From: an uncultured bacterium
GTDB lineage: Bacteria; Verrucomicrobiota; Verrucomicrobiia; Verrucomicrobiales; DEV007
Length of the DNA: 64,000 bases
Direction: 5' to 3'
Assembly (NCBI GenBank): GCA_963977015.1
Contig: CAXBMO010000028.1
Span: 1 to 64,000, forward strand
Shown: piece by piece, positions 1-19,683 of the stretch
How positions within the stretch are numbered: the first letter of the stretch is position 1
How the letters are laid out: every line of letters begins with the position of its first letter
Notes under the pieces: generated by a model
What the model was told of the DNA's origin: nothing
Database searches by the model: none
Seen by the model: the letters and a program-made list of their open reading frames with translations, nothing else
Translations under genes and position numbers: made by a program

Positions 1-88
1 CTAGCTGTGACGATGGGACATCACCGACCCCACGATCCCGCGTCAGCAGCGGGACACGCCCTCATTTCAATCGCTCCACAGCTATGAC

Positions 89-1135: not shown

Positions 1136-1267
1136 AGATCGGTTCTACCCTTTTTCGGGAATGTTGTCAGGTAAAGTTAGCAATTTTTCCGTCAGACAAA
1201 GGCAAAAACTTGTGGTTGGCCTTCATCCCAACCCTGTGGAAGACTTCTCAAGATTATAAACCATAGC

Positions 1268-2293
1268 ATGGATCCATCAACGAACGCCCCCCTCCCCGAA
1301 CTCGGAGACGACGACGTCGCCGCCATCGATAATTTACGGAATTCCTATCACCAGTTGAAGGATGAGATTGGCAAGATCATCGTGGGTCAGGAATCGGTGA
1401 TTGAGCATTTGGCGATTTGCCTTTTCGCCCGCGGCCATGCGCTCCTCATGGGCGTCCCCGGCCTCGCCAAAACGCTGCTCGTCAAACGCCTGTCCGAGAC
1501 CATGCATCTGGATTTCAGCCGGATTCAGTTTACGCCCGACCTCATGCCGATGGACATCACCGGCACCGACATCCTTCAGGAAGGTCAGGGCGGTCGCCGC
1601 GAGTTCGAATTCATCAAGGGTCCCGTTTTTGCCAACATCGTCCTCGCCGACGAGATCAACCGCGCCCCCTCCAAAACGCAGTCTGCCATGCTCGAAGCGA
1701 TGCAGGAACACCGCGTTACCGTCGCGGGACGCACCTTTGAGCTGGATCCCCCGTATTTCGTGCTCGCCACGCAGAACCCGATCGAGCAGGAAGGCACCTA
1801 CCCGCTTCCCGAAGCCCAGCTCGACCGCTTCATGTTCATGGTCGAAGTCGAATATCCCAAGCGCAGCGACGAAATCGAGATCGCGCGTTCCACCACCGGA
1901 GAAACGCCGCCACCGCTCGATGCCGTCATCAACGCGGAACAAGTCATCGCCTACCAGCAGCTCGTTCGCCGCGTCCCCGTTCCCGATCACATTTTCGAGT
2001 TCGCCGTGGATCTCGTTCGCCGCACCCGTCCCCGGAGCGAAGAAGCGCCCGAGTGGATCAAGCCGCTCGTCGGTTGGGGAGCCGGCCCCCGTGCCGTCCA
2101 GTGCCTCATTCTTGGCGCCCGCGCCCGCGCCGCGCTTCACGGCAGCTACATGGTTCGTCAGGAAGACGTCGAAGCCGTCGCCGAGCCCGTCATGATCCAT
2201 CGTGTCCTCACCACTTTCGCCGCCGAATCCGAAGGCATCACCAGCCGCGACGTCGTGAAACGTTTGGTGAAGGAACTCGGCGAAGAAGCCTGA
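1268..2293 (+). CDS. moxR: MoxR-family AAA+ ATPase
   Basis: GVPGLAKT Walker A, RIQFTPDLMP, LADEINRA, ATQNPIEQEGTYPLPEAQLDRF. Confidence 0.95.
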   Translation: MDPSTNAPLPELGDDDVAAIDNLRNSYHQLKDEIGKIIVGQESVIEHLAICLFARGHALLMGVPGLAKTLLVKRLSETMHLDFSRIQFTPDLMPMDITGTDILQEGQGGRREFEFIKGPVFANIVLADEINRAPSKTQSAMLEAMQEHRVTVAGRTFELDPPYFVLATQNPIEQEGTYPLPEAQLDRFMFMVEVEYPKRSDEIEIARSTTGETPPPLDAVINAEQVIAYQQLVRRVPVPDHIFEFAVDLVRRTRPRSEEAPEWIKPLVGWGAGPRAVQCLILGARARAALHGSYMVRQEDVEAVAEPVMIHRVLTTFAAESEGITSRDVVKRLVKELGEEA

Positions 2294-2309
2294 CGGTGAG
2301 GGGGTCACA

Positions 2310-2580
2310 ATGATAATTATTGAAGAGACAAAGAACTTCCCGAAAGAAGAAATCGATTCGTTGACCGACCAAGTCAGACAGCCTCCTCGAAGCCGCCGAA
2401 ACCCAGGTTTGGATCGAATTCGCGGTGAAAAGCGGCTATCTTTCCGATCAAACCGCCCGCCATCTCTTCAAATCCTACGACGAAGTCATCGGCACCCTGG
2501 TCGGCATGATTAACCACAAGGAAACCTGGCTTCTCCCGCATCCATCGACACCCAAGTCACCCCTTCCCCCCTCCACCTAG
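2310..2580 (+). pseudogene. Four-helix-bundle (23S rRNA IVS-type) protein remnant with internal deletion/frameshift
   Basis: ETKNFPKEEIDSLTDQVR in one frame, then EAAETQVWIEFAVKSGYL...YDEVIGTLVGMINHKETWLLP in another; the central RRSSRSVCANxAE segment typical of the family is absent. Confidence 0.8.
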
Positions 2581-2595
2581 TCACCCCCTCACAAC

Positions 2596-3501
2596 GTGTC
2601 CCCTCCCACCAAGCACGACTTCCTTGACCCGAAGGTCCTCTCCCGTCTGGCCGGGCTCCCGTTGTTCGCGCGCCAACCCATGCTGGGAAACGTTTCCGGC
2701 CGGCATCGGAGTCCGATTCGGGGATCGAGCCTGGAATTCGCCGAGTATCGGAAATACGTGCCCGGTGACGATACGCGCCGTCTCGACTGGCGCGCCTGGG
2801 GACGCAGCGACCGCTTTTACATCAAGGAATTCGAGGCCGACACCAATCTCCGCATGTGCATCATCGTCGATACCAGCGGATCGATGAAGTACGGGCCGAA
2901 GGGCGGCACCAAACTCGACTTTGCCCGGCAACTGGCCGGAACGCTCGCCTTTCTCGCGGTGCGTCAGGGCGATGCCGCCGGCCTCTATTGCGCGAGCGAA
3001 GAATTCACCAAAGAGATTCCGCCCAAGCGTTCCGCCGCCCATTTGCGCGTCATCCTCGATGAGCTGAAAGACATCAAGGCCGAAGGCGAAACCGGGCTCA
3101 TCGCCGCGCTTCACCAGGCCGCGGAGAAGATCCAACAACGCGCCCTGGTCGTCGTCATATCCGACCTCTTTCTCGACACCGCCGAGTTGAAGGAGGCGAT
3201 GCAACACCTCCGCTTTCGCAAGCACGACGTCTCCGTCTTTCACCTGCTCGAGCGGCACGAAATCGACTTCGACTTCGAGCGCCCCACCCGATTCGTCGAT
3301 CTCGAAGGCGGCGCCCCCATGCTCGTCGATCCCGACATCATCGGCCCCCAATATCGCAAGGCCCTCGCCGAGTATCTCAACGCCGTCACCGCCATCGTGA
3401 ACGACGCCGCGATCGACTATCACCGCGTCAGCGTCGACGAAAGCGCCGAGACCGTCCTCGCCCGCTTCCTCCTCGGTCGCATGCCGAAGCAGGCGAAGTA
3501 G
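2596..3501 (+). CDS. DUF58 / vWA-like MoxR-associated protein
   Basis: GRHRSPIRGSSLEFAEYRKYVPGDDTRRLDW, VDTSGSM MIDAS-like motif; downstream of moxR. Confidence 0.92.
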   Translation: MSPPTKHDFLDPKVLSRLAGLPLFARQPMLGNVSGRHRSPIRGSSLEFAEYRKYVPGDDTRRLDWRAWGRSDRFYIKEFEADTNLRMCIIVDTSGSMKYGPKGGTKLDFARQLAGTLAFLAVRQGDAAGLYCASEEFTKEIPPKRSAAHLRVILDELKDIKAEGETGLIAALHQAAEKIQQRALVVVISDLFLDTAELKEAMQHLRFRKHDVSVFHLLERHEIDFDFERPTRFVDLEGGAPMLVDPDIIGPQYRKALAEYLNAVTAIVNDAAIDYHRVSVDESAETVLARFLLGRMPKQAK

Positions 3502-3507
3502 CGGTCG

Positions 3508-3558
3508 GGTTTCAGGTTTCAGGTTTCAGGTTTCAGGTTTCAGGTTTCAGGTTTCAGG
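3508..3558 (+). repeat. Tandem heptamer repeat (GGTTTCA)x7
   Basis: Seven perfect copies at 3508-3556 plus GG, directly after the DUF58 stop. Confidence 0.97.
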
Positions 3559-3593
3559 CTTTGGGGTGTCTCCGCACTTTTTTTGCCAACGTT

Positions 3594-3625
3594 TGTAACT
3601 CTGATTGGCGGGCCGGTAAGGAACC
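3594..3625 (+). promoter_or_regulatory. Putative ECF promoter P1: TGTAAC-N15-GGTAAGGAACC
   Basis: One of six copies with identical spacing, each upstream of a gene; followed by hairpin GGTGGAA-CGCAA-TTCCACC (3626-3644). Confidence 0.75.
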
Positions 3626-3678
3626 GGTGGAACGCAATTCCACCACCTTCAAACCAACCTTACCAACCTACCAATCCG

Positions 3679-4053
3679 ATGAAAAACGCTACTTCTTCCT
3701 TCTGCCTGATCGCTTCTGTCTTCGCCCTCATGCTCTTCGGCGCCACCAACTCCGCCCAGGCCGTTGACCAAATCCTCATCACCCTCTCCTACACCACCGA
3801 CGGCGACGTCACCGAATACCTGGACGGCCTCAAAGCAATCGAAGCCAAGTTGGCCGACAAGTTCGACCTGAAATTCGACTGGAACGGCAACACGATCACC
3901 GTCAGCAACGACACTGGTTCGGTCGGCGGAACGATCACCTTCGCCGGCAACAAACTGGATGCCAACATCACCCTGGCTCCAAAACTGAAGTTCTTTTCAA
4001 AAGTGATCAAGAGCGGCCTGGACAAGGAGTTCCGCAATAAGCTGAGCGCTTGA
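3679..4053 (+). CDS. Secreted small protein, PHA_gran_rgn-like fold (paralog A)
   Basis: ATG 3679, Sec signal peptide MKNATSSFCLIASVFALMLFGATNSAQA; mature part highly similar to 9000-9383. Confidence 0.85.
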   Translation: MKNATSSFCLIASVFALMLFGATNSAQAVDQILITLSYTTDGDVTEYLDGLKAIEAKLADKFDLKFDWNGNTITVSNDTGSVGGTITFAGNKLDANITLAPKLKFFSKVIKSGLDKEFRNKLSA

Positions 4054-4086
4054 TTTTCGAATACCCCAAAACCTGGAAAAACCCGG

Positions 4087-4117
4087 AAGGCCGCCCACTG
4101 AGGCGGCCTTTTCTTTT
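4087..4117 (+). terminator. Rho-independent terminator between convergent genes
   Basis: AAGGCCGCC-cactga-GGCGGCCTT followed by TTCTTTT. Confidence 0.85.
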
Positions 4118-4123
4118 GGTTCG

Positions 4124-6154
4124 TCATTTCACCGGCTCGATCCAGAGCAGCGTCGCTTGCTCCTGTTCATTGTTAGAATTCACCTTGAACTCGATATCAA
4201 CAGCTGGCCCGAGGGCCTCGATCCGTTCGAACAATTCACCGGCGCCAGCCACGGGGTTGCCGAGTCGTTGCCAGTGGTTTTTACCCCACGCGCGCCACGA
4301 GCCATCTTCCAGCTGCGCCGCAGCGCCGCGTCCGTAAGCGCGAATCGCATACACCTTTGGCAAATCCGTTGGAATTTGGGCGCCGGAATGGTCAAACGTG
4401 GCGCCCGGAGCCAAAAGAGCGTGCGGAACGCCGTCCCGGTCGAGCGCGAGAGCGAACATAGCTCCAACAGCAACTTCGACGATGGATTGGCCGGTCAACT
4501 CCGTGAATTCGCCCGTATTGAAGTTCCAGAGCGAAACCGATCCGTCCTGAGCCAAGAAGGCGCTGAAATCACCTTTGCTGTCCACTGCAACGATGTCTTC
4601 CAGTGCTTCAAGTTTCCGGATCATCTCGTCACGCCACACTGGGGCGTCTGTCGAATCGGCGAAAGCGATCTTGATTCGGCCTTGGTCAGTCACGAAAATC
4701 AACCGACCGTCTGCGCTATTAACGGCGCGGGCTTTGGCGACGGAATTTCTCAATGCTTCAAAATCCGGAGGCGTAGGCGTGCCCGAGAACGGTAGAATTG
4801 TGCCTTCCCGACTTACCACGAAAAAGTCCGACCATGAAGCTGGGTCAGGCAACCGAAGAGTTCTGTTTGTCTTGTAGATCAGGCCGCTGGCGGATGCCGC
4901 CTTGTACTGCCACGAAGTCGGAGCAAAGAAGAGCCTTTGAAGATCGTCTACCCCTTCGGCCTGAGTCAGGTCGAGAGGCTCCCCATCCGATGTCCAAGCC
5001 CGCAACCGCCCGCCGCGCTCCTTCATCGCAGCCAACGCTGGCGGCAGTTCGAGCGTAAGTTGAGCACTCGTTTCCGTTAGGACGACGTTCTCCCAAGGTT
5101 TCCAAATCAATCCCGACACCGCCAAAGTAGCAGCCAACAATGCGGCTCCAAATCCCAAAACCGCCCTCTTCGAGCCTGACTTTCCTCCCGATCTCACCTT
5201 TTTTCCGTTTTTCTCCATTCCTGCGATCGTTTTCCCCTTCGGATTGCTCCGTATCACCGTCACATCGCTCTCCACGTCCTTGGCACTCTGGTAACGCCGC
5301 TCGGGCTTCTCCTCCATCGCTTTGAGAACAACATCGTCGATCCTCACATCAACCTGGATTTTGCCGGAGGGCGGCGCGAAATGGCCACGCGGAATTTCAC
5401 CGGTGAGCATTTCGTAGAGCATCACGCCGAGGCTGTAAATATCGGCGCGGTGATCGACTTCGCCGGTGCCGCTCATTTGCTCCGGCGCGACGTAATTCGG
5501 GGTCCCCATGGAGATGCCGGTCAGGGTGATGCCGAGTTGCTCCGTTTCGGAACCCTGCTTGGGATCGACCAGCTTGGCGAGGCCGAAATCGCCGACTTTG
5601 ACGACGCCTTCTTCGTTGAGGAGGATGTTGGCGGGTTTGATGTCGCGGTGCACGTAGCCCTTGGAGTGGGCGTAATGGAGCGCTTCGCAAATCTGGATGA
5701 CGACCTTGAGCGCGGTTTCCGGCTGGACATGGCCTTCGCGAATCAGGGAATGAAGATCGCCGCCCTCGACGAATTCCATCACGAAAAAGTAATGCCCGCC
5801 TTCAGTTTGCCCGAAGTCAAAAATCTGGATGATATTGGGGTGATTGAGCCGGGCCATGGATTGGGCCTCGCGGCGAAACCGGGCCTCGAATTCGAGATCC
5901 TGGCCCAATTCGGGCGGGAGGACCTTGATGGCGACGGGGCGTTTCAGGCTGATCTGGATGCCCTGATAGACGGCGCCCATCCCTCCCCTGCCGAGAATCT
6001 TCTCGACGGTGTAGTCCGGCATGAAGCGATCCAGTTCCTCGGCGGAAACAGGCTCCCACTGCCCGGGAGGCGTGGCCATGGCCTGACGCAGGAGATCCGC
6101 GTCGGTATCGCGTTTTGGTTGATGAGGCTGGGTTGGTTCCTGCTCCGGGTTCAT
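4124..6154 (-). CDS. Membrane Ser/Thr (Hanks-type) kinase with C-terminal RCC1-like repeats
   Basis: GRGGMGAV, VAIK, HRDIKPANIL, DFGLAK, GTPNYVAPEQ; TM AVLGFGAALLAATLAVSGLIW; C-terminal IVEVAVGAMFALALDRDG / AAAQLEDGSWRAWG repeats. Confidence 0.92.
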   Translation of the reverse strand: MNPEQEPTQPHQPKRDTDADLLRQAMATPPGQWEPVSAEELDRFMPDYTVEKILGRGGMGAVYQGIQISLKRPVAIKVLPPELGQDLEFEARFRREAQSMARLNHPNIIQIFDFGQTEGGHYFFVMEFVEGGDLHSLIREGHVQPETALKVVIQICEALHYAHSKGYVHRDIKPANILLNEEGVVKVGDFGLAKLVDPKQGSETEQLGITLTGISMGTPNYVAPEQMSGTGEVDHRADIYSLGVMLYEMLTGEIPRGHFAPPSGKIQVDVRIDDVVLKAMEEKPERRYQSAKDVESDVTVIRSNPKGKTIAGMEKNGKKVRSGGKSGSKRAVLGFGAALLAATLAVSGLIWKPWENVVLTETSAQLTLELPPALAAMKERGGRLRAWTSDGEPLDLTQAEGVDDLQRLFFAPTSWQYKAASASGLIYKTNRTLRLPDPASWSDFFVVSREGTILPFSGTPTPPDFEALRNSVAKARAVNSADGRLIFVTDQGRIKIAFADSTDAPVWRDEMIRKLEALEDIVAVDSKGDFSAFLAQDGSVSLWNFNTGEFTELTGQSIVEVAVGAMFALALDRDGVPHALLAPGATFDHSGAQIPTDLPKVYAIRAYGRGAAAQLEDGSWRAWGKNHWQRLGNPVAGAGELFERIEALGPAVDIEFKVNSNNEQEQATLLWIEPVK

Positions 6155-6259
6155 TGCTATTCAAGTTCAGGACTACCGGGATTTGAGGCGGAGGGCAAGT
6201 TTTCAGTGGGACAACCAACGGCAGTGCCTTCTGATCACTGTTTTACTGACTACCAACCC

Positions 6260-7141
6260 TCACTTCACGCCCCAGGCTTGAACATAAGTCGGGCTCAGCA
6301 CGCGGGTATTCGGATCGGCGAGATGGGCGGCCAAATCACGCTCGAAGGTGTCGATCTCGGTTTCGCTCAGCAATCCGGCTTCAGCGATGTCATTCCGGAT
6401 GCGTTTGAGAATGGCGAGGAGGAAGGTGTGCTTGATGTCGCCGGCGCGCCAGACGTAGCAGCGGCGCTGAACCTGAATGTTGGTGATGCCGGCTTTGCCC
6501 AGCATCTCGGGCAGGCGATTCCCGATATGGACATCCAGGCCGTTTTGGCTCCAGACGTTTCTGGCAGCGTCTTTGATGCGCGTCCAGGATTCGGCGAGGG
6601 GGTCGCACGTCCACGAGGACCAATCCACCTCGTGAAGTGCAACCGTCCCACCAACCTTGGTGACGCGTACCAATTCGTTCACCACTTCTTGTGGCCGGGG
6701 CACGTTCACCAAAAGGAGACGGGCATGGGCCAGATCGAAATTCTGATTCGGCAGATGCGTGTGGCGGGCATCGCCGGCAATGACATTGACGTGGTCGAAC
6801 CCGCCACGGCGGACCTCGGCTTCGGCGTAGGCGCGGTAGCGATCCTCGCGCTCCAACCCGGTGACGTGGCCGGTCGAGCCAACCCGCTTCGCCATTTCGT
6901 CGAGTATCCCGAGCGGGCCGCATCCCAGATCCAACGCGCGTTCCCCGGGCTTCAGGTTTACCGACTCCAGCATCTGGCGCGCTTCCGGGCGATAGAGCTC
7001 GGCCTGCTTGATGAGCCGCTCCGGCTCTTGGGTACTTTTCCCAAGAAGGTAGGCACCCTGACTTGCGTCCTTCGGCGCCTGAGGGTTCTTCGAAAAGGAC
7101 CGGTTGAGATGCGGAAGAGGAGCGAGCGTTGCAGGATTCAT
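6260..7141 (-). CDS. Class I SAM-dependent methyltransferase
   Basis: ALDLGCGPLG motif I, VIAGDA, FDLAHARLLL, LVRVTKVGG. Confidence 0.92.
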   Translation of the reverse strand: MNPATLAPLPHLNRSFSKNPQAPKDASQGAYLLGKSTQEPERLIKQAELYRPEARQMLESVNLKPGERALDLGCGPLGILDEMAKRVGSTGHVTGLEREDRYRAYAEAEVRRGGFDHVNVIAGDARHTHLPNQNFDLAHARLLLVNVPRPQEVVNELVRVTKVGGTVALHEVDWSSWTCDPLAESWTRIKDAARNVWSQNGLDVHIGNRLPEMLGKAGITNIQVQRRCYVWRAGDIKHTFLLAILKRIRNDIAEAGLLSETEIDTFERDLAAHLADPNTRVLSPTYVQAWGVK

Positions 7142-7170
7142 GAGATGGGTTGGATGGAAGTTCGTTCTAC

Positions 7171-7203
7171 GGATTCCTTTCCGAAGCGGAGGAAAAGGTT
7201 ACA
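7171..7203 (-). promoter_or_regulatory. Putative ECF promoter P2: TGTAAC-N15-GGAAAGGAATCC
   Basis: Reverse complement of 7171-7203; about 30 nt upstream of the methyltransferase ATG. Confidence 0.68.
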
Positions 7204-7414
7204 AAGAAACTTCTCTTTTCTGAAATCGCGCCAGGATGGTGCGCTCGTTTTCGAGCACCAGAGCTGGTGCGCCGATCTGCACAAGCTTCGCGAGGCGACG
7301 CTCCTGATTTCGAACCTGCCCGAGAAATTGGCTTGGCTGTTTTGGGAAGGAGGCGTTCTTTGTTGCAGCAGCCATTCCTACATAAGCTGCGGTCGTGAGA
7401 TGAACGGTATTCAT
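7199..7414 (-). CDS. Small 71-aa hypothetical protein
   Basis: ATG-started ORF about 30 nt downstream of promoter P3; its TAA stop lies inside the -35 box of P2. Confidence 0.5.
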   Translation of the reverse strand: MNTVHLTTAAYVGMAAATKNASFPKQPSQFLGQVRNQERRLAKLVQIGAPALVLENERTILARFQKREVSL

Positions 7415-7442
7415 TGGAGTCGTAGTTGAAGATTTCGTTACT

Positions 7443-7475
7443 CCCTTCCTTTCCCAACCCGGGGAAAAGGTTACG
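7443..7475 (-). promoter_or_regulatory. Putative ECF promoter P3: CGTAAC-N15-GGAAAGGAAGGG
   Basis: Same spacing as the other five; shares GTAACCTTTTCC with P2. Confidence 0.62.
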
Positions 7476-7617
7476 ATCTTTCTTTAAAATCCTGCCAAGG
7501 GACCAACCGGTACCCATGAGAAGCTTTTTTCGCAATGACTTGCGCCTTTCGCTCGAAATCGAACCATCCCTCAGGTTGGCAACTCTGATTGGCGATGCGA
7601 CAGGGACAACCAGACCG

Positions 7618-7643
7618 AAAAAAAAGCCGCCCGGAGGCGGCTG
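7618..7643 (-). terminator. Rho-independent terminator of paralog B
   Basis: Minus strand AGCCGCC-tccg-GGCGGCT then a T run. Confidence 0.85.
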
Positions 7644-7690
7644 CTTTGAACATGGCGCATTGCGAGACGCGCCTTTGGTGAGAGGTTTGA

Positions 7691-8066
7691 CTACCGGGTC
7701 ATCAAGCGGCGGGAAAATTCGCGATTCAACTTGCCGCGAACGATTCCGGTCGCGTGGTGAAGTTTACCCGTCAGAGTCAGCCGAACGGAAACCTTCGACT
7801 TCGAATACTGGATTTGGCCATTGATTCCCTCACGAGTGACCGTGATGGCAGAGGTTCCCCCACTGGCTCTTCACCTGATGCTGCTGCTCCAACATCTTTC
7901 CGATTTCCTGGAGAGCGCTCTTCACCTGCGCCAAGTCACCAAGTTGCGGTTGATAATCCAGCGAAATCTGGCCTGCCGATGCGCCGGACGGTAGCGAGAT
8001 CACCGCTGCGATGGCAACGAGGAATGTGCGGATGGCGCCGGAGAGTTGAGGAGATGAGTTAAACAT
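7691..8066 (-). pseudogene. Frameshifted secreted PHA_gran_rgn-like paralog B
   Basis: Signal peptide ORF 7830-8066; removing one G from the G5 run (7857-7861) gives ...KSQWGTSAITVTREGINGQIQYSKSKVSVRLTLTGKLHHATGIVRGKLNREFSRRLMTR* (124 aa), colinear with paralogs A and C. Confidence 0.85.
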
Positions 8067-8116
8067 GATCTTGGTTGGCTATGGTTGCGAAGTTGAAAGT
8101 TCTTTTCGGGTTCGCT

Positions 8117-8148
8117 GGTTCCTTACCGACCCAGAGATCAACGTTACA
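8117..8148 (-). promoter_or_regulatory. Putative ECF promoter P4: TGTAAC-N15-GGTAAGGAACC
   Basis: Exact motif upstream of ATG 8066. Confidence 0.75.
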
Positions 8149-8190
8149 AACATTGGGAAAAAATGGTTCTCTCGGATTGAGGTTTCCAGG

Positions 8191-8332
8191 AGGCGGAACG
8201 ACCGGTGGGCCGGGACACCGGTTGTCGGTCCCTTTCAGGGCCCATTTTTTCCTTCGGCTGATCCCAGGGCCGCGCTCGTTCCTTGCTTGCCCGGGGCTGA
8301 CATATCTCAGCCCGTTGGGCTGGCACGATGCC
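8191..8332. repeat. REP/REPIN-like palindromic element, copy 1 (partially deleted)
   Basis: About 120-bp direct repeat of 8551-8671 (GGGACACCGGTTGTCGGTCCCTTTCAGGGCCC...AGCCCGTTGGGCTGGCACGATGC). Confidence 0.8.
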
Positions 8333-8453
8333 TCCGGCATTGGGACATCATCGGTCTTACGATCCCACGTCAGCAGCGAGGCGCGCCCTCTTTTTAATCG
8401 CTCCACAGCTTTCTCCCTAGCGTATCGCAAAGTTTGCCATCTTTCGGCCCGCG

Positions 8454-8671
8454 TCCAGCCTGACAGGTTGAGATAGGCCAGCCCCGGCCGAAGGGCGGAA
8501 CGACCGGCGGGCCGGGGTAACGATCGATGAATCGGGTGAGATCTGGAAGGCCGGGACACCGGTTGTCGGTCCCTTTCAGGGCCCATTTTTCCCTTCGGTG
8601 ATCCCAGGGCGGCGCTCGTTTCTCACTTGCCCTGGGCTGTCATTTCTCAGCCCGTTGGGCTGGCACGATGC
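8454..8671. repeat. REP/REPIN-like doublet, copy 2
   Basis: Two oppositely oriented multi-hairpin units (AGCCTGACAGG / AGCCCCGGCC..GGCCGGGG and CCCTTTCAGGG / CCCAGGG..CCCTGGG / AGCCCGTTGGGCT). Confidence 0.78.
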
Positions 8672-8939
8672 ATTTCTGCTCGAAAAGTAGATTGGAAAAC
8701 CACCACAAATCCTGGAGCACCAAAAATTGGAACGTGCTCGCCCGTCTGGATTGCTCAAGGACGCGGTCACCCCCAGAAATGGTAAGGCCGCTCAATTGGG
8801 CGGCTTTTTCGGGCGCAGCCTTATTCCCACATCAATGTTCCGGATTGAAATCCGGCGCTGTTAAGGTGGGTGCTTTCAGCATCCTGTGGGAAGGAAATTC
8901 TTCATGTCCTTCAGGCACTTCATGGTGCATTTGCGGAGC

Positions 8940-8972
8940 AAAAAGAAAAGGCCGCCTTGAGGGGCGGCCTTC
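8940..8972 (-). terminator. Terminator of paralog C, near-identical to 4087-4117
   Basis: Minus strand AAGGCCGCC-cctcaa-GGCGGCCTTTTCTTTT. Confidence 0.85.
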
Positions 8973-8999
8973 CGGGTTTGGGAAGTTCCGGTTGGTGAA

Positions 9000-9383
9000 T
9001 CAGGCGTTCAGCTTGTTGCGGAACTCTTTGTCGAGGCCGCTGCGGATGCCTTTGGCAAAGAAGCGCAACTTGGGGGCGAGCTTGATGTTGGCGCGCAGAT
9101 TGTTGCCGGAAAACGTGATCGTTCCGCCGACCGAACCGGTGTCGTTGCTCACCGTGATGGTGTTGCCGTTCCAATCGAATTTCAGATCGAACTTGTCGGC
9201 CAACTTGGCTTCAATCGCCTTGAGGCCGTCCAGGTATTCGGTGACCTCGCCATCCGTGGTGTAGTTCAGGGAGATGAGAACCTCGTCCGCGGCTTGAGCC
9301 TGAGTAGCGGTTCCGAAGATGGCGATGGTTGCGAAAGCTGCAGAAAAGAAGAAGCGGATGGAAGAAGAAGTGATGTTTTTCAT
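9000..9383 (-). CDS. Secreted small protein, PHA_gran_rgn-like fold (paralog C)
   Basis: Signal peptide ending AQA; EYLDGLKAIEAKLADKFDLKFDWNGNTITVSNDTGSVGGTITF identical to paralog A. Confidence 0.87.
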   Translation of the reverse strand: MKNITSSSIRFFFSAAFATIAIFGTATQAQAADEVLISLNYTTDGEVTEYLDGLKAIEAKLADKFDLKFDWNGNTITVSNDTGSVGGTITFSGNNLRANIKLAPKLRFFAKGIRSGLDKEFRNKLNA

Positions 9384-9436
9384 GAGATTGGTAGGTTGGT
9401 ATGGTTGGTTTGTAGGTGGTGGAATTGCGTTCCACC

Positions 9437-9468
9437 GGTTCCTTACCGACCCGCCCGACAGGGTTACA
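9437..9468 (-). promoter_or_regulatory. Putative ECF promoter P5: TGTAAC-N15-GGTAAGGAACC
   Basis: Exact motif followed by the same GGTGGAACGCAATTCCACC hairpin and leader as P1. Confidence 0.75.
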
Positions 9469-9622
9469 AAGTTTTGGGAAAAAAAGTGAAACCGCGCATT
9501 TCACAGGGAGGTTTCGCCGCAAAGACACGACTTCAAAGTTACTCGCGGAGGATTCGATACCGCCATTCCTCGGGATGGCTGCCTTGGAATGTTCACCTTG
9601 CAATTCCGATGATGGAATCCCC

Positions 9623-9661
9623 AAAAAACAAAAATCCCCGACTTCGAGGTGAAGCCGGGGC
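9623..9661 (-). terminator. Terminator of 9701-10159
   Basis: Minus strand CCCCGGCTTC-acctc-GAAGTCGGGG then ATTTTTGTTTTTT. Confidence 0.8.
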
Positions 9662-9700
9662 CTTGTGGGCAATTTGACTGGTGCTGAGAAGCTTACGGTT

Positions 9701-10159
9701 TCAGCGTGTCAACGTCCTTTCGATGTAGTCATTACCATGCACAAATGGAGTGATGTCGTAGGTGTAGATGCGAGATGAATTCGAGAGATGGCGGTGGAAT
9801 TTTTCCAGGTAAAAGGTGAAATCTCCGTAGTGATTTGGGACAACCGTAACCGGAACGCCATGATTCTCCCGGCCTGTTTTCGGTATTCCGTTGGTATCAA
9901 TGTTGATTGCAAGCCAATAGACTGCAGTGATTTTGTTTTTGGACAACGTGACACGATGGACGGTCCCTTTCTTGTAGAGATAGCTTTCGTCAAAGTAGAG
10001 TTTTGAGCTGCCACGTTCTTTCCAAACAATCAGCGTTTGATACTCGGAATTGGATTCAGAGACAATTCGGATCTCGATTTCTTCGGCTTGGGTTCCGGAA
10101 ATACCGGCCACGGACGCGAGAACGAACAGGAAGGCCGTGATGGATTGATGTGCTTTCAT
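9701..10159 (-). CDS. Secreted hypothetical protein (beta-rich, lower GC)
   Basis: ATG 10159, signal peptide MKAHQSITAFLFVLASVAGISGTQA; own promoter and terminator. Confidence 0.75.
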   Translation of the reverse strand: MKAHQSITAFLFVLASVAGISGTQAEEIEIRIVSESNSEYQTLIVWKERGSSKLYFDESYLYKKGTVHRVTLSKNKITAVYWLAINIDTNGIPKTGRENHGVPVTVVPNHYGDFTFYLEKFHRHLSNSSRIYTYDITPFVHGNDYIERTLTR

Positions 10160-10212
10160 CGGATAATGGGAGTTTGGTTCTGGATGGATGGTTGGAAGCA
10201 TCGCGTTCCACC

Positions 10213-10244
10213 GGTTCCTTACCGGCCCGCCTGACGACGTTACA
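10213..10244 (-). promoter_or_regulatory. Putative ECF promoter P6: TGTAAC-N15-GGTAAGGAACC
   Basis: Exact motif, followed by GGTGGAACGC as in P1/P5. Confidence 0.75.
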
Positions 10245-10350
10245 AAGTTTTGGGAAAAAGTTGGAGATCGGGAGATTGCGGCCAATCACTCCGCCCCGCT
10301 CCAAAAGCCCTGCTTTCCCCGATGAAACCCGCAATCCTCCACGGAATCTC

Positions 10351-13300
10351 ATGGCAGAGTCCGGCATTCCAAGTTCAAAATATTGCGTCCAATGCGCTGC
10401 TCCACTTCCGGCGAAGACGAAACGCGGAGAGAACACCTGCCTGAAGTGTCTCTTTTTAGGAGTGCTCGGTGAAAAAGCGGACGAAACGCTCGTCGATCGG
10501 AATTCCGCGCCGGACGACACCTCGACCGAGAATGAACGCCAAATTGGCCCCTACCAACTCCTCGACTCGGTCGCGGCCGGCGGGATGGGCGAAGTCTTCA
10601 TCGCGGAACAACGCGAACCGGTCCAACGCCTCGTCGCGCTGAAGATCGTCAAAGCCGGGATGGACAGTCGCGAAGTGCTCCGCCGATTCGAGGCTGAGCG
10701 CCAGGCCCTCGCGATTCTGGATCACCCGAACATCGCCCACGTTTACGACGCCGGCACCGCGCCTTCCGGCCGGCCGTTTTTCGTGATGGAGTTGGTCGAT
10801 GGCGATTCAATCACGGATTACTGCGATCGCAAACGCCTCAATTCCCGGCAACGTCTCCAGCTCTTCGTCAAAGTCTGCGATGCGGTCCAGCACGCTCACC
10901 AACGCGGCATCATTCATCGCGATCTCAAGCCTTCCAACATCCTGGTGGAAGAAGATGACCACGGCCATCCCACGCCCAAAGTGATCGACTTCGGGATCGC
11001 CAAAGCGATGGATCGTGAGCTGACCCAGCGCACCGTGGAAACCCAGGTCGGCGACCTGCTCGGCACGCCGCAATACATGAGCCCGGAGCAGGCGCTCGGC
11101 GACAACGACGCGATCGACACCCGAACCGACATCTATTCGCTCGGCGTGATTCTCTACGAATTGCTCACCGGTCATCCGCCGATTTCCGCGCAACAAATCC
11201 AGAGCGCGGGGATGCTCGGAGTTGGCAAACTCATCCTGGAAACCGAACCGGAGCGCCCCAGCGCAAAGCTTCGTACGATGGGCAAGGAAGCTGAGACCGT
11301 GGCGGATCGGCGGCGGACCGATTCCGCTCAATTGACCAGCTCGCTTCGCCAAGAATAGGATTGGGTGACGCTGAAGTGCCTGGAAAAGGAAAAGGAGCGC
11401 CGCTACGCAACGGCCAACGCCCTGGCCCGGGAATTGGAACGCCATCTGAGCGACGAAGTCGTCGAAGCGCGCCCGCCGACCGTCAGCTACCGGCTCAAAA
11501 AGACGATTCGGCGCAATCGGGTCGCGGTTACCGCGGGATCGTTGGTCCTGTTGGCGATTTTCGCAGGGGCGGGATTGGCAGTTTGGCAGGCGATTCAAGC
11601 CACTGAGGCAAACCAGGAGACCAGCGTCCTTCTGGCGGGAGGCTATGTGGAGAAAGGTTGGGAGTGTCTGGAAAAAGGTGACGCTTCACAAGCACTACTT
11701 TGGCATACCAAGGCGCTGGAGGTCGCGGCAAACCGAGGTGGCGTTGCAAGGAACGCGGAATTGCCATACCGGCAGAGCGCGGGCTGGGCTTGGTCGCTGG
11801 CACCTAAACCGGTTGGCGTTCTCAAACCCGGAATTCAGTTCAAGGTGGACCATATTTGGAAAGATCCCAACAGTGACCGCGCTATTTTGGTAAGTCCAAC
11901 TACGGGAATCGAAGTCTGGGATCTCCGGAAGGGGAAAGTGGTGATTCCGCGGCACTCCATCAAGTTCGAACTGGTTGCGGCTGATGAGGATCGGCGGCGT
12001 TTTGCTCTACTCGCCAATGGGGAAGTCGCCCTCCATCACTTTGATCAGCCGATGAAAGCCATCTGGACTACGCAGCTGGAGGGCAATGAGGATTCCACCT
12101 TTCAACAACTCAAATTTTCCCACAATGCGAAGCTATTGGTGGTTGCGAGCGATCAAATGGTATTGACAGTGCTGGATAGCGAAAGTGGGACAGTCTTACG
12201 AAAACTGGATCTTGGTGACGGGCTGAAAAGGCAGAATGTCGAACTCCAGATGAGCGAGGTCGATGATCTTGCGGCAACCCATTCCAGGTCGCGTGGGCCC
12301 AACCATGTGGGAATCGGAAATCTCCATACGGGCAAAGTGCTTTTTTCCAATCTTTACGCGACCAATCAAAAAAGCACGGCATCGGCCTTTTCAATCGATG
12401 GGAAACAATTTGTCTTGGGAGAAAATTTTAAGGAATTGAGGATTCTTGATCTCGCGACGGGGCGTATGGAGCCCTCTTCGCTCAAACTGGTGAACAGAAT
12501 TTCCCCGACCAGCGTCTTCTTCAATTCGACGGGCCGAAATCTCTTTTGCCGCTATGGCGGGGGAAGTATTACCGGTTGGAATTGGCGGGAGAAGGATCGT
12601 CTCTTTGCCAGGACGCCCGGGTTCAAAAAACTCGAATTGGAAGCGAATAGGGAAGAGCTACTCTTGACTGCGGTAGATCGCGCGGGACTGCTGCTCAATG
12701 CCCAAACCGGAGAAACCACGATGCTGTTCCAAGATTCAACTGATCTCCGTGGGGCAACATTTCTTCAAGAACTCGTCGTAACAGGCGGGCAACCTGGTCC
12801 ATCGAATCCGAGGCCTATTCCGACCGTTTGGAAAGTGCCCAACAACAGACGTGGGCAGCCGTTGACAAACTCCGGTGGAGGCACGGGACAGAGTATGTCC
12901 TCGCGTATTCAGTCATCCCAATATGATCCGGTAAACAACCTGATCTCGACCGTGGTTGCAGAAGGTGCAACCATTTGGGATTCGGACACGGGAGAGGTCG
13001 TTTTCCGTTATTACGACGCCAACGATCCGATTTATTTCGCCCGCCTTTTTGCCGAAGGCAGGCTCTTGGCTGTGGTTGGCGCACAGAACATCATCAAGGT
13101 TATCGAGATCGAGAGCGGGAAACTCAAAACATCGATCAAACCGGAGCGGCCAGTGTATCGCATTGATGTCTCACCCAACGGAAAATGGCTAGCCGCCCAA
13201 GATTATCTTGAGACGAAACCTGAAAACTTGGGAGAAACGATTCGGTTTTGGCGCTTGCCTGGTGGAGAGCTGATTCATTCCATTCCCGCCAAGTTGGTTT

Positions 13301-14739
13301 ATGCGGAGCGAAGCGGCCTCCGATTCACTTCTGATGAGCGTTTTGCTCTTATGCAGAGTAAGGATGCGCGTTACAGCGATTCCGAACAGAACGAGGCCAC
13401 GCTTTTGGATTTGGAAACGGGCGAGACGTGGGAGTATTCAGCGGATCCTGAGCGGGAAATGGAAATGAGTTGGGATACGCTCGTATATAAAAGTGCCTAT
13501 TTTTGTGCCAATCAACTGACGTTCATCGATGAGCGCACCCTTGTCCTCGGCCGTTCCATTTGGAGAATTCAACCCGAGGGAGGCATGGAGCGAATCGGGC
13601 GACTTCGCAAGCCAGAGGATGCCACGACTTCCACGAAAATTCCCGGGACCAGCCATGTCCTCGTTGACCATGGCGTAGAGGGAGTGTTTCAAGCTTTTGA
13701 TGTAGAGACTCAAGCTCCGGTTTCAATTCCGATCTCTCATGGAGGCAAAATCACCGCCCTCGCAGTCGACCCAACCGGACGAATTGCGGCTTCCGGAGGA
13801 TTTAGGGGCCGCATCCGATTATGGGATCTGGGCACGGGCCTACCGGTGAGTCCGTGGATGGGAGAACCGGAATCTCCCGAGATCGTCCGTCTGATTTTCG
13901 CTTCAAATGGGAAAACCCTGATTTCCATGGATCGGGAGGGGAAGATCAGGCTATGGCGAATACCGACCCCGGTAGAGTTGCCGTTGGAAGATCTACGCGA
14001 GGTTTCAGAAACGGTCGCTCGGCGTAAAATTCTAGAAGGGGGGCGTCTGCAACCGTTCAGCTCGGAAGAGGTTGTCGAACGATGGGAAGAAGGCAGGCAC
14101 CCACAATGGACGCGTGCTGATCTGCCGTTGATCGAGGATGGTGGTTCGATTTCATTGTTTGATGGAAACAGCCTGGGAAACTGGGATGCTCGGTTTTCGA
14201 ATGATCCCGGATTTTCGATCAGGAATGGTCTTCTGAAGCTGAGTCGCCCCGACGATGAGACTCCCCAATGGATATGGGCGGTCGATCAGAATGGAAAAGA
14301 ACTGCAATTCCGGGATTTCCAACTTCGGCTGAAATATTGGGCGGAACCTGATGGACATGGCTACGTGTTTTTTCACTCCAGCAAGGTTAAATCGGGTCAA
14401 CCAGTGCCGGGAAATGGAGTTGCGATCGGCGGAGCGACGACGAATCCTCTGTTTGGCGATCACGCCGGTTCCATTCCTTCCCTCTATGCCTGGAAAGGCG
14501 ATGCGCTGGTTTCTGGGCCAAATCGATGGCATGAGCTGGAGATCGAGGTTCGCGGAAATCGCATCGTGACGAGAATTGATGGAACCACCGTCGCCTTCTG
14601 GGAAGAACCTGAGAATTGGGAAGGCTTCTCGCAGCCGTATCTGTTCACCAAAAAATTGGGTTCAGGAACGTTCGGGCTGCGCCTTGTTCGGGGAACGATT
14701 TTTCTGAAGGACATCCGTGTTAGGCGGCTGGATGACTAA
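10351..14739 (+). pseudogene. Ser/Thr kinase-TM-WD40-DUF1080 protein interrupted by one in-frame TAG (11356-11358)
   Basis: CxxC...CxxC N-terminus, GGMGEV, HRDLKPSNIL, DFGIAK, GTPQYMSPEQ; SLRQE*DWVTLKCLEKEKERRY matches the family pattern LRGELDWIVMKALEKDRxRRY; WD40 repeats; SLFDGNSLGNW...WHELEIEVRG...GTFGL..FLKDIRVR DUF1080. Confidence 0.88.
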
Positions 14740-14823
14740 AACCCGTCCGGCTCTCGCACGCCACCAACCGGTTCCCCTGGGCATCTCTTGAAGGCGGCTT
14801 TTCTTTTGCCCTGCGCCCCCGGC

Positions 14824-15309
14824 CTACAACGCTCGTTCCCTTTCCCAATCCTCGCAGATACGCGTCCTGGTTTCCTGATCCTTTTTCCGGAGTTCATTGA
14901 GTTTTCCTTCTTTCTCAAGCTTCATCAGCACCTCGATACTTTGCCTCCCGTTTTGAATCGCCAGATCATCGGCCTTCCATTGGTTGGCCTCGCGGTAGAG
15001 ATTGGCCACTTTCCAGAACAGGCTGCTCAGGCTTTCCCGGTTTCCAACGTGCGATGGCCGAATCTCAATCTGTTTTTCCGCTGTCTTGACCGCGAGGAGC
15101 GCGGCTTCGATGGCTCCGTTCAGATCTTTCCGGGCCTTGAGAATTTCCGATCTCCGGATGTAGATATCCTTGAGTTCCCTCCACCGCTTTTGCGACTCCG
15201 TGACCTGGGGATGGAATTCCCGGACCAGAATTCGTTCCGCTTCGGTGATGTAGCTGAGAGCGAGGTCCAGTTGCTGTTCCCAACGGACTGTGAACGCACC
15301 AACTGCCAC
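14824..15309 (-). CDS. Helical (TPR-like) hypothetical protein, possibly a truncated C-terminal remnant
   Basis: Amphipathic helical pattern, RPSHVGNRESLSSLFWKVANL; directly downstream of the ECF gene. Confidence 0.5.
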   Translation of the reverse strand: MAVGAFTVRWEQQLDLALSYITEAERILVREFHPQVTESQKRWRELKDIYIRRSEILKARKDLNGAIEAALLAVKTAEKQIEIRPSHVGNRESLSSLFWKVANLYREANQWKADDLAIQNGRQSIEVLMKLEKEGKLNELRKKDQETRTRICEDWERERAL

Positions 15310-15321
15310 CTCCTGATGCCG

Positions 15322-16092
15322 TCAGCCCAGCGCCGAGAGCAGATGCCGCAGTTCCTGATCAATTGAGCCAGCTTCCGATTGATCCATGGTTTGGCGGACT
15401 TCGTCTTCGAGCAATTCACGGTAACGCGCCCGCAGGCGGTGCACCCGGACCTTCAGATTTCCTTCGCTGATCCCGAGTTTCGAGGCAGCGTCGGCGTAGC
15501 TGATTTCGGCGGAATTCCAAGCCATGAAATCCTTCAAGACCTCGAACTCCTCTTCCTTACCCTTTTTGGAAAAGTCTTCTCCGAGCCGTTTCATCACGGA
15601 TTCAAGAAGCAGCCGAGCCCAGCTGCGATCGAGGATTTGCTCCGGCGTCAGGTTGTCGACCGGCTCCGCCTCGTAGCGCCCTTCCGCCCATTCCTGATTG
15701 ATGGAAAGGTGGGTTTGCCCGCCACCTCGTTTCTGCGCTTGTTTGGCGCGGTATTCCTTGGCTCGATATTTCTTGATGGCGTCAATGAGAAAGGTTCTGA
15801 GTTTGCCTTTGTCGCGATCCGCCGCCTCAAGAAAATCTTTCTCGACCAAGGCCGCGAAAAAGCCCTGCACCTCGTCCGAGGAATCGTCGGGCGGCGCCCC
15901 CTGACTGCGAACAAAGGCATACAACGGATACCAATAGTCTTCGCAAAGTTTACTGAGGGCCTCAAAGGAATCCGGCTCACTCACATCCGAGGCGCGGCGA
16001 ACCAGCGTCCAGCGAGTTTGCGGAAAGGAACCCGGACTCGCCTGGGCGAGCGTTTCCTGGGAAAGTGGAATGTTACCTGTCTCACTCATCAA
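15322..16092 (-). CDS. ECF sigma factor of the Ser/Thr-kinase-associated PVC type
   Basis: FPQTRWTLVRRA...EALSKLCEDYWYPLYAFVR, KGKLRTFLI, region 4 SYADAASKLGISEGNLKVRVHRLRARYR. Confidence 0.92.
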   Translation of the reverse strand: MMSETGNIPLSQETLAQASPGSFPQTRWTLVRRASDVSEPDSFEALSKLCEDYWYPLYAFVRSQGAPPDDSSDEVQGFFAALVEKDFLEAADRDKGKLRTFLIDAIKKYRAKEYRAKQAQKRGGGQTHLSINQEWAEGRYEAEPVDNLTPEQILDRSWARLLLESVMKRLGEDFSKKGKEEEFEVLKDFMAWNSAEISYADAASKLGISEGNLKVRVHRLRARYRELLEDEVRQTMDQSEAGSIDQELRHLLSALG

Positions 16093-16253
16093 TGACTAGA
16101 CTACCCAAATCTTTGAGAGCGGGAAGACAATTTCACCTCGAATGTCCGGTTTTTGCGGTCATTGCCCCCATTTCTCCAGTCTTGCCCTGCCCCAAAACCT
16201 TGCTAACATGTCATGGAATTCTGTAGCCTCCCCCGAAGCTTCGGTTTCTCCGC

Positions 16254-19200
16254 ATGAATGCTTCCTCCCATGGTCCTGCCTTGACGCGCAAGCGTGCCCT
16301 GGTCGTGCAAAACGACGCAGGAACACGGAAATTGATCTGTGAGCAGTTGATGAATTTCGGCTTTGATGTCGATGCCGGGGCAACGGTTGCAGACGGCGCT
16401 TCGCTCTATCGCTACCAACCTCTGGTCGTAACCTCAACCGAACGCGACCCGATGATGCCCCGCGGCTTCATTGCGTGGTTGCACGAAAATCACCAGGACG
16501 AAAGCAGCCGCCCTTACATTCTCGCCATTTCCGATCGGGAGTCGTCGCTGAGTACGCCGCCGCAGAACCGGGCTTGGGATGAGCTGCTCACGCTTCCGCT
16601 CAAAGCTTCGGAGCTGAAACACCGGATCCAGGCCATCGGCACCTGGGTGGACAGTTTTCTGGAGGGTCAAGGCAAGGGGAACAGCGACGTCCGGGCTTAT
16701 CCCGAAGAAGCCGTTGAGGCGGTTCCCGTTGCCGAGCCCCCGGAGCGGGAGCGGATTGTGGTGCGGGCAAAGTTTCCCAATCGCAAGGCTCAGACGGTTG
16801 AGGCGGCTCCGCAGCAACGCCTTGCCGAATCTTCAACGTCAAATCCCGGCGTGGCGACCAAGCCGGTCATGAAGGTGCCGCCGCCGCCCAGCCTGGTGTC
16901 GCCCAAAACGGCGCCGGTCAAACCGATTACCCCGCCAACCGGTCCGGTTGCAGAGCGAACCAAGCCGCGGCCCGCGATGCGCAACACGGGGTTGATGTCG
17001 CCGACCGAGCAGTTTCAAGCGTTGGTCGACAACGCGCCCGTCGCTTTGGCGATGCTGGATCTGGATCTGCGATACCTGGTGGTGAACCGAAGGTGGCTCC
17101 GCGATTTCCGATTGGAGAACGTGGAGGTGATCGGACGGAAGCACCTGGAGGTGTTTCCCCAACTTGGCGAAAACTGGTCGCACATTTACAACCGTGCCCT
17201 GGAGGGGATGCCGGATCGAAGTCAGCCGGATATCTTCGTGCATGCGGACGGAACCCAGGATTGGGTGCGCTGGGAGGTGCAGCCGTGGACGAATTCCTCG
17301 CGCGAGATTCAGGGCATCACGATCAGCTGTGAAGCGGTCAATCAAAATCCCTCCACCAATTCCCCTTCGGAACTTGAGTTGGTTGGACATTCCCTGCTCA
17401 AGGGCAAGGTAACGCCGGTCATCAGCCTGAATATGGAAGGCACCATTGAAGGTGCGAGCGAGGCGTGCCTGGGATTCGCCTCCAACACGGTGACCACGCT
17501 GAAGGGGGAGCGATTCTGGGACATTTTTGTCAGCAACCATCAACGCGACGACGTCAAGCTGAGCTATCTGGCTGCGGCGAAGGAAACCCGCGAGAACGAA
17601 TACTTCGCGTTTCCACCGACGTTCGTCACCGAGGTGAATCTCAGCTCGGGCGGCGAGACAACGATGGCGTGGACGAACTCCCCTCGTTATGATGGCACGG
17701 GCCGCGTTTCCGGCGTCGTCTGCCTTGGCATTCCAATTGGCGATGGTTCCGCCCTGCTCGGCGACATCGACAAAGCGCGCAAAGGCCGGCAAAGCCTGTC
17801 GGGCGCCGCGTCCTATTATGCGACTGAACCCTCGGCGATTCTGGAGCAGATTTCGTTCGGGATCGTTCTCCTCGATCCTCAGCGCAACACACTTTACGCG
17901 AATCCGGAACACCGCCATCTGCTCGGTTACGATGTGGAGACGTTTGACGACATTGAAGACTGGATTCGTCAGGCGGCACCCAATCCCAATCACAGCCACA
18001 CTTTGCTGGAGGAGTGGCGCACGAGCGTCTGGCAGCAACAGGTTACCAAAATCTTAAGCCTGAGAACCCGCGATGGCGTGATGCGCGAAATCGAGTTTCG
18101 CCCGCGGCCGACGTCCGACGGCGGATTGATGTTGACCCTTTTCGACGTCACGGAGCGACGACGCGGCGAGGAAGCTCTGCGGTCGAGCGAAGCGAAATTC
18201 CGCGCGTTGTTTCAAGACGCCGGCGTGGGAATTGTTCTGGAAGACACGACCGGGGCGATTTTTGACGCAAACCCGATTTTCGAATCAATCATTGGTGCTT
18301 CCCGGTCCGATCTGCGGCGCAGCGGGATGCAGGATTGGGTCGAACATTCCGACCGCCCGCAAATTGGGTTGGCGCTGCAAAAGCTCGATCCGGCGGAAGC
18401 GTCGCGACGTCCCGTGACACTCGAGATTCGACTTGTCCGCCAGGATCAATCCCAGCTGATCGCCCGCACCACCATCTCGCGAGTCTACGATGGAAATGAG
18501 CGGCTGCTCTACACGGCTTACTTTATTCAGGACGTCACGGCCGAGCGCGAAGCGACTTCCAACTTCCAATTGGCCGAGCAACAGAATCGGGCACTCTTCC
18601 AGGCCATCCCGGATTTAATCCTGCTGCTCGATTCGACCGGCCGCGTCATCGACGTCATCCCGGCCGCCAGCGGCATGTTGCTGAACGATGCGGCCCAGGG
18701 CATTGGGAAGCGTCTCTCCGAAATCGCACCCGCTCTCGCCGAACATGAAAGCAGGCTCCTGCAGCAGGCCATTGGGCAGGACGGGATCGTGGTTCAGGAA
18801 TTTGTCCAACCGTTCGCCGATGGAAGTTCCAAAGCCCTGACCGCGCGTTTGGCACGTTGCGGAACCGATCACGTGGTTGCGGTGATTCAGGTCAACACCG
18901 ATTCTCGCGATTCCAACAACGAGCTGCGAAGACTGGCACTTACTTTTGGCCTCAGCCAGGACGCCGTCATCATCACGAACCTCGCCGGCAAAATTACCGA
19001 ATGGAATCCGGCGGCGGAACGAATGTTCGGCTATCGCACCGAGGAGATCATCGGTCACGGCCTTGCGACGTTGTTCAGCCCCAACGACCGTCCCGCCTTC
19101 AACAACGTGATCGCTGACAGCCTCACCGAGCAGGGCGAATGGGGCGGCGAAGTCGACTACTTCCGCTCAGACGGCAGCCAAGCCCGCGCCAACGTGATCT

Positions 19201-19268: not shown

Positions 19269-19317
19269 GGGCAATCGGAAAGATTGGTAGCAGTTGCCAT
19301 GACGGACTGATCATAGT

Positions 19318-19668: not shown

Positions 19669-19683
19669 CTGCTTCCCGGACAG

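Follow-up and report, generated by a model that had tools for sequence, protein, structure and literature searches.

Here we describe a two-box DNA motif, YGTAAC-N15-GGWAAGGAA, and the extracytoplasmic function (ECF) sigma factor encoded beside it in an uncultured bacterium of the Verrucomicrobiales. The window, by which we mean the whole 64-kb stretch of DNA that was analysed, is contig C28:1-64000 of a 6,885,723-base assembly (G000). It holds six copies of the motif, and these are probably promoters read by RNA polymerase carrying the ECF encoded at 15322-16089, with a Ser/Thr kinase as the presumed switch. Comparison between genomes shows the motif to be the predicted promoter type of the family to which this ECF belongs, with the GGTAAG form going with the orthogroup of the window ECF and with its nearest sister clade. 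For the genome itself, we infer that ECF 15322-16089 is the reader of the six sites, because it is the only family member near them and because no promoter-like GTAAC-N15 site lies within 400 nt of any of its six paralogs elsewhere in the genome.

In the proposed mechanism, GTAAC would be the -35 box and GG(T/A)AAG, 15 nt further on, the -10 box, with transcription probably starting about 8 nt past the latter. The ECF would drive four stand-alone cassettes for small secreted proteins, each with its own terminator, and also, via two tandem promoters, an operon of orf71, a methyltransferase gene and the gene for the kinase STK1. A membrane Ser/Thr kinase would sense an extracellular cue, phosphorylate the ECF and turn it on. 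Because STK1 lies in a motif-driven operon, this likely partner kinase would itself be a target of the ECF, which would give positive feedback, as is suggested for the sister clade described below. One member of the kinase-linked ECFs would thus gain a precise promoter, a likely start position and a short target list, all of them testable. Literature searches turned up no description of the motif; Jogler et al. 2012 and Iyer et al. 2020, or their supplements, might describe the family or its promoters.

Copies of the motif in the window and in the genome

An earlier note on this DNA had reported six full copies of the motif in the window, each with a spacer of constant length and variable sequence and with an ATG downstream. 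An exact search returned these six matches and no other full copy, and none of 100 dinucleotide shuffles of the window gave any match. Every site is asymmetric and aimed at a gene, and the spacer is fixed at 15 nt but variable in sequence. The distance to the ATG, measured on the sequence from the end of the motif, is 31-55 nt (Table 1).

The note had also proposed a genome-wide scan for the shorter core GTAAC-N15-GGWAAG. This gave nine matches, six of them in the window; the reversed control pattern gave 16 in the same 6,885,723 bases. In a position-weight scan built from the six sites, the sites themselves reached 43-59 bits, and the runners-up elsewhere in the genome had 23.9, 18.9 and 14.9. 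A seventh good site lies outside the window at C12:2599-2626 (locus L038, minus strand), where a T-tract and GTAAC-N15-GGTAAGAA are followed by a CA-rich leader of ~80 nt and then the gene for a 113-aa lipoprotein-like protein. The regulon had been called self-contained. Six of the nine core matches are indeed local, but because this further good site precedes the C12 lipoprotein gene, the regulon appears to be almost, and not wholly, local.

The six sites fall into two classes. Class A copies (3594, 8148, 9468 and 10244) have an upstream T-tract and part of the leader in common, about 75 nt including flanks, and class B copies (7203 and 7475) have similar spacers. Since the spacers form two related sets, the six sites are not six independent inventions. 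Shared flanks of this kind could also be produced if the repeats were operator or recombination sites, or remnants of cassette duplication, rather than promoters; two of the cassettes are paralogous, and the same block contains a dispersed repeat of ~125 nt and a 7-nt tandem array. We consider this explanation very improbable. Nothing but the two boxes at their fixed spacing is common to class A and class B, which stand in front of unrelated genes. The motif is non-palindromic and always aimed at a gene. No better sigma-70-type promoter was found, the matches numbering two against 4.2 expected. The position of the motif in relatives, given below, argues in the same direction.

The motif resembles classic ECF promoters in its two boxes: GTAAC occupies the -35 position and is followed 15-16 nt on by a short -10 box. 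Bacillus SigW promoters have the form TGAAAC-N16-CGTA. The -35 sequence recurs in the promoters of Caulobacter SigF (GTAACC...CGTA) and Corynebacterium SigD (GTAACA/G...GAT), as given in the entries for these factors in the ECF classification supplement. Unlike the classic promoters, the motif has GGTAAG(GAA) and not a CGT-type sequence as its -10 box. With a spacer of 15-17 nt taken as typical of ECF-type promoters, the sites combine AAC in the -35 box, a fixed spacer, a short -10 box, orientation towards a gene and conservation beside a sigma factor gene. Sigma-54 and sigma-28 promoters, in their generally known forms, were also considered and rejected, as the boxes and the spacing do not fit.

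Motif sites beside ECF and kinase genes of related genomes

The earlier note had taken the motif to be the promoter of the adjacent ECF and had proposed to look for enrichment near related ECF and kinase loci. Both points gained support from a comparison of 134 genomes of the same family. Outside the window's own genome there were 27 matches to GTAAC-N15-GGTAAGRA, all of which were fetched. Eight of these lie <1 kb from a gene of the ECF family, where at most about 0.8 would be expected by chance; the latter is an upper estimate that assumes at most 43 ECF-family genes per genome. The eight matches represent about five lineages or gene settings, not eight independent events.

Of the 133 other genomes in the family, eight encode an ortholog of the window ECF, at 50-70% identity and with E values no higher than 1e-72. 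Four of the eight (G115, G072, G103 and G090) have a full GTAAC-N15-GGTAAGGAA at a distance of 0.67-0.86 kb from the ortholog, aimed at a gene that converges on it. The target is a LuxR-type regulator in G115, G072 and G103; in G090 it is an unrelated 124-aa secreted protein, which showed no similarity to sp3, the secreted protein behind promoter copy 6. Presence of GTAAC-N15-GGTAAGRA also tracks the ortholog, with the motif found in 7/9 ortholog-bearing genomes versus 15/125 others. A strict 17-base form of the motif, searched in a collection with one genome per species that may exclude the window's genome, yielded 24 isolated hits from unrelated phyla, about as many as chance would give.

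Four of the eight near-ECF matches adjoin ECF paralogs (40-46% identical) in G031, G016 and G136. In these genomes the motif takes up the space that separates the ECF gene from a gene for a zinc-ribbon kinase, whose ATG comes 8-11 nt past GGTAAG. G031 has a further copy upstream of the ECF gene, and G060, a member of another family of the order, likewise has both sites, one in the ECF-kinase gap and one before the ECF gene. At one of the loci, L088 (G031:C204), the ECF paralog seems split: an ATG 43 nt past the first base of the motif opens an 89-aa frame with the N-terminal motif of the family, while the main alignment lies in a different frame and begins at query residue 48.

A search with the G136 ECF protein against 401 genomes of the order gave 19 loci of this sister clade. 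GTAAC lies between -15 and +70 nt relative to the ECF stop codon at 17/19 loci and within 220 nt upstream of the ECF gene at 14/19, against background expectations of 0.04 and 0.11 per interval searched. Without G136 and G060, which were already known, the counts are 15/17 and 13/17. A single genus supplies 10 of the 19 loci; counted by genus, the post-ECF site is present in seven of nine. All of the sister-clade GTAAC sites have a hexamer exactly 15 nt further on, which reads GGTAA(G/T), (C/T)TGAA(C/G/T) or CTTA(T/A)N.

Judged from gene order and sequence, this layout is typical of an ECF operon that regulates itself, which argues that GTAAC is the -35 box and the hexamer the -10 box. As the kinase start codons follow the hexamer by only 8-11 nt, there is no room for a separate promoter, and the transcript would start about 8 nt downstream. 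Both the lack of space before these start codons and the occupation of the position of self-regulated ECF promoters speak against the motif being an operator, a recombination site or a duplication remnant.

We also compared the hexamer with sigma region 2 (loci L107-L124, L022, L088 and L089). Loci with GGTAAG have G[KR]LRT in region 2, and loci with CTGAA, CTTAT or GGTAAT have GRFR[TS], a correspondence that carries no correction for ancestry. The region-4 helix and the -35 box are constant across the same loci. A tentative reading, to which we give somewhat less than even credence, is that the kinase-linked ECF family follows a readable promoter code in which GTAAC and the 15-nt spacer are constant and the -10 hexamer changes by clade. 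The hexamer may pass from GGTAAG to CTGAAC/TTGAAG and then to CTTATC, tracking G[KR]LRT versus GRFRT in region 2. The window member may have given up self-regulation, its promoter spreading by cassette duplication to secreted proteins and to a kinase. If this code is true, the family is a natural set of sigma/promoter pairs without cross-talk, with kinase mRNAs that are almost leaderless. A constant -35 box with clade-specific -10 boxes would offer a way to ask how ECFs read the -10 element, and a possible source of orthogonal expression parts. In the sister clade, as in classic self-regulated ECFs, the promoter stands before the sigma gene. The window sigma gene, in contrast, is not self-regulated and the promoter is found instead at duplicated secreted-protein cassettes. 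This apparent loss of self-regulation, the spread of the promoter and the differing -10 boxes are what make the system of interest.

Several observations weigh against the window ECF as the reader of the sites. There are ~56 sigma-70-family genes in the genome, counted as region-2 matches and including the six paralogs, and we estimate that ~14% of random 7-kb stretches would have some sigma gene no more than 5 kb away. The window ECF gene is not preceded by GTAAC, so self-regulation is not seen there. The orthologs in G087 and G088 have no adjacent site; the best sites in these genomes are elsewhere, intergenic and before secreted proteins. Around the closest ortholog, in G001 (70% identical), the gene neighbourhood is not conserved and the motif is absent for ~30 kb on either side; elsewhere this genome has two duplicated near-matches (GGTAAGGCC) and nothing more. 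Related genomes share ancestry, so that the counts overstate independence, and the four class A sites share flanks and hence are partly copies of one ancestor. The sites could then be ECF-type promoters read by another sigma factor, either one of the six paralogs or the ordinary ECF at 33118-33795, with the closeness of ECF 15322-16089 being coincidental. This seems improbable to us. Across genomes, the sole recurrent neighbour of the motif is a member of the family of the window ECF, in five gene settings, and both the co-occurrence of motif and ortholog and the lack of sites at the six paralogs also speak against another reader. Enumeration of two-box repeats around the six paralogs gave coding or chance repeats only; the genome-wide enumeration was dominated by tandem and coding repeats.

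The sigma factor and its candidate kinase switch

ECF (group 4) sigma factors were recognised by the presence of regions 2 and 4 only, a length of about 200-250 aa and a match to an ECF profile. The protein encoded at 15322-16089 matches PF07638 (Sigma70_ECF) with 25.9 bits, above the Pfam cut-off of 21.1, which bears out the earlier description of an ECF in the block. It scores 38.9 bits with TIGR02937 (residues 44-226), under the cut-off of 42.9, and is missed by PF04542 at E 0.001; a sequence search of the PDB gave a marginal region-4 alignment to the sigma factor 5uxx. On these profile matches it is a divergent ECF member. Kinase-linked ECFs of this family are very numerous in these genomes: the window's own genome has seven copies (the window ECF and its six paralogs), and up to 43 matches were found in one relative.

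A kinase domain lies within 1.5 kb of the ECF gene at 20/29 best-per-genome loci of the family. As for the window, 583 nt separate the end of STK2 from the ECF gene, and STK1 is 9 kb away. No anti-sigma domain was recognised among the neighbouring proteins with Pfam or NCBIfam; orf161, directly downstream of the ECF gene, matches no family there and might still be an anti-sigma factor. By analogy with ECFs known to be switched by kinases, a kinase may turn the window ECF on. STK1 would be the candidate, as STK2 seems to be defective in this assembly. The block had been said to encode two membrane Ser/Thr kinases. Both are predicted to be single-pass proteins, but the one with WD40 repeats and DUF1080, STK2, is encoded in a single reading frame that a TAG at 11356-11358 interrupts within the kinase domain and that resumes from 11365. 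Either a genuine nonsense mutation or a fault in the assembly could account for this stop codon.

Pairs of an ECF43 sigma factor and a Hanks-type kinase, EcfP/PknT of Vibrio parahaemolyticus and EcfK/PknS of Xanthomonas citri, are treated in parts of PMC13147305 and PMC8999054. As described there, the window ECF resembles ECF43 in having no recognisable anti-sigma partner, in its nearness to single-pass Ser/Thr kinases and in its presumed control of a nearby gene set; it likewise matches Pfam Sigma70_ECF and not the usual region-2 model. The difference lies in the acidic patch of region 2.2. According to the same parts of these two papers, ECF43 proteins have no DAED and carry the phospho-acceptor Thr there. 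Most members of the present family, in contrast, read DAEDLTQ, the orthologs of the window ECF read DAADEVQ and the window ECF itself DSSDEVQ. The last keeps two acidic residues and has no Thr, so that the window ECF lacks the defining feature of ECF43. In its entry in the ECF classification supplement, ECF43 is listed for Proteobacteria only.

Other kinase-linked groups, ECF62, ECF59, ECF61 and ECF217, are given as Planctomycetes only in the relevant entries of the PMC7826278 supplement, where the motifs predicted as promoters of ECF59-62 show little or no conservation. Compared by description, STK2 resembles the ECF62-type partner kinase of PMC7826278, with an N-terminal zinc finger (CVQC...CLKC), one membrane helix and Pfam matches to WD40, albeit in a gene broken by the TAG. 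ECF62 and the other kinase-linked Planctomycetes groups are, in those entries, without an anti-sigma factor. Unlike the non-conserved motifs of these groups, the promoter described here is clear and common to many loci.

The kinase genes might alternatively be mere targets or neighbours of an ECF that reads the promoters without being switched by phosphorylation, control being exerted through its own transcription, orf161, orf71 or proteolysis. We rate this as rather unlikely, though far from negligible. The sister-clade kinase gene comes after the ECF gene behind the shared promoter, an STK2-like kinase gene lies directly upstream of the ECF ortholog in G088, and the 20/29 linkage and the lack of a recognisable anti-sigma domain also favour a kinase. 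The acidic patch sits less easily with phosphorylation as the switch, since it is intact (DAED or DAQD) in most of the family and only partly lost in the window orthogroup (DAAD or DSSD), and so does the interruption of STK2. Furthermore, at none of the six loci of g2-genus orthologs (L065-L070) does a kinase domain lie within 1.5 kb, the system is flanked by two small ORFs that are unexplained, and groups other than ECF43 may work differently, as a part of PMC8999054 allows.

Genes, cassettes and repeats of the block

The features of the block are collected in Table 1. Its gene content agrees with the earlier description of an unrelated secreted protein, a 71-aa ORF and a methyltransferase among the targets, and the four targets said to have their own terminator are the small cassettes for sp1, the third paralog, sp2 and sp3, each of which ends in a strong hairpin with a T-run. 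No terminator was found in the 105-nt gap between the methyltransferase and STK1 genes, and for this reason orf71, the methyltransferase and STK1 look like one operon with two tandem motif promoters.

Table 1. Putative promoters, genes and terminators in the motif-bearing block (positions in the window)
Feature	Position	Strand	Remarks
Promoter copy 1, class A	3594..3623	+	TGTAAC-N15-GGTAAGGAA; 55 nt to sp1 ATG
sp1	3679..4053	+	124-aa secreted protein; signal peptide, PHA_gran_rgn-like domain
Hairpin terminator, two-way	4085..4112		closes sp1 (+) and the orf71-methyltransferase-STK1 operon (-)
STK1	4124..6154	-	intact Hanks-type Ser/Thr kinase; membrane helix at residues 332-350; weak RCC1-like outer part
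Methyltransferase	6260..7141	-	SAM-dependent, 293 aa
Promoter copy 2, class B	7174..7203	-	TGTAAC-N15-GGAAAGGAA; 32 nt to methyltransferase ATG; overlaps orf71 end
orf71	7199..7414	-	71-aa ORF, no family match
Promoter copy 3, class B	7446..7475	-	CGTAAC-N15-GGAAAGGAA; 31 nt to orf71 ATG
Third paralog of sp1/sp2, divergent	7691..8066	-	secreted; frameshifted near 7845-7862; terminator 7625-7642
Promoter copy 4, class A	8119..8148	-	52 nt to ATG; before third paralog
sp2	9000..9383	-	127-aa secreted paralog of sp1; terminator 8946-8973
Promoter copy 5, class A	9439..9468	-	55 nt to ATG; before sp2
sp3	9701..10159	-	152-aa secreted protein, unrelated to sp1/sp2; terminator 9636-9660
Promoter copy 6, class A	10215..10244	-	55 nt to ATG; before sp3
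STK2	10351..14739	+	zinc-ribbon start, kinase domain, one membrane helix, WD40 repeats, DUF1080
orf161	14824..15309	-	helical ORF directly downstream of ECF gene
ECF sigma factor	15322..16089	-	ATG at 16089; FPxTRWxxV...LCxxYWYPLY type, kinase-linked

Three secreted paralogs had been described. Two of these, sp1 and sp2, are intact and 74-76% identical to each other. The third is divergent (about 25% identical to sp2; tblastn combined E 7e-06) and frameshifted, one frame encoding the signal peptide and the first half and a different frame the remainder: its ORF stops at 7830, and the similarity to sp2, found by tblastn in two frames, runs on to 7691. Both sp1 and sp2 match PF09650 (PHA_gran_rgn; 29.2 and 27.6 bits, Pfam cut-off 26.6). 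TIGR02610 gives a score of 24.5, under its cut-off of 40.25. An Atlas structure model of sp2 resembles a PF09650 cluster (TM 0.68). No relative of sp2 was found in 60 related genomes. By the same kind of structure-model comparison, sp3 resembles unnamed periplasmic clusters. No second copy of orf71 was found anywhere in its own genome, and orf161 gave no family in Pfam or NCBIfam and no relative in its own genome or the fetched loci.

In relatives as in the window, most sites have a semi-conserved third element, G-T-G-(R)-A-A-C, ~3-10 nt past GGWAAGGAA. It sits where the transcript should begin, and at the kinase-gene sites of relatives the start codon (ATGAAC, ATGGAC) is found there. A 7-bp hairpin, GGTGGAA / TTCCACC (-10.1 kcal/mol), at 3626-3644 and 9418-9436 would form the extreme 5' end of the sp1 and sp2 transcripts. 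Past the hairpin, the leaders of both are CA-rich and unstructured and have no Shine-Dalgarno-like sequence.

Just upstream of promoter copy 1 is a perfect tandem array, (GGTTTCA) x 7.3, at 3508-3558. Contigs of two DNA runs show joints inside this array, a hint of copy-number variation. Two copies of the ~125-nt repeat lie between cassettes, at 8208-8331 and 8540-8680. Rfam gave no match in positions 1-20000 of the window, this repeat included. Nine more matches to it (80-93% identical, two of them partial) are spread over six other contigs, and one of these, at C12:174-303, is near the extra promoter site.

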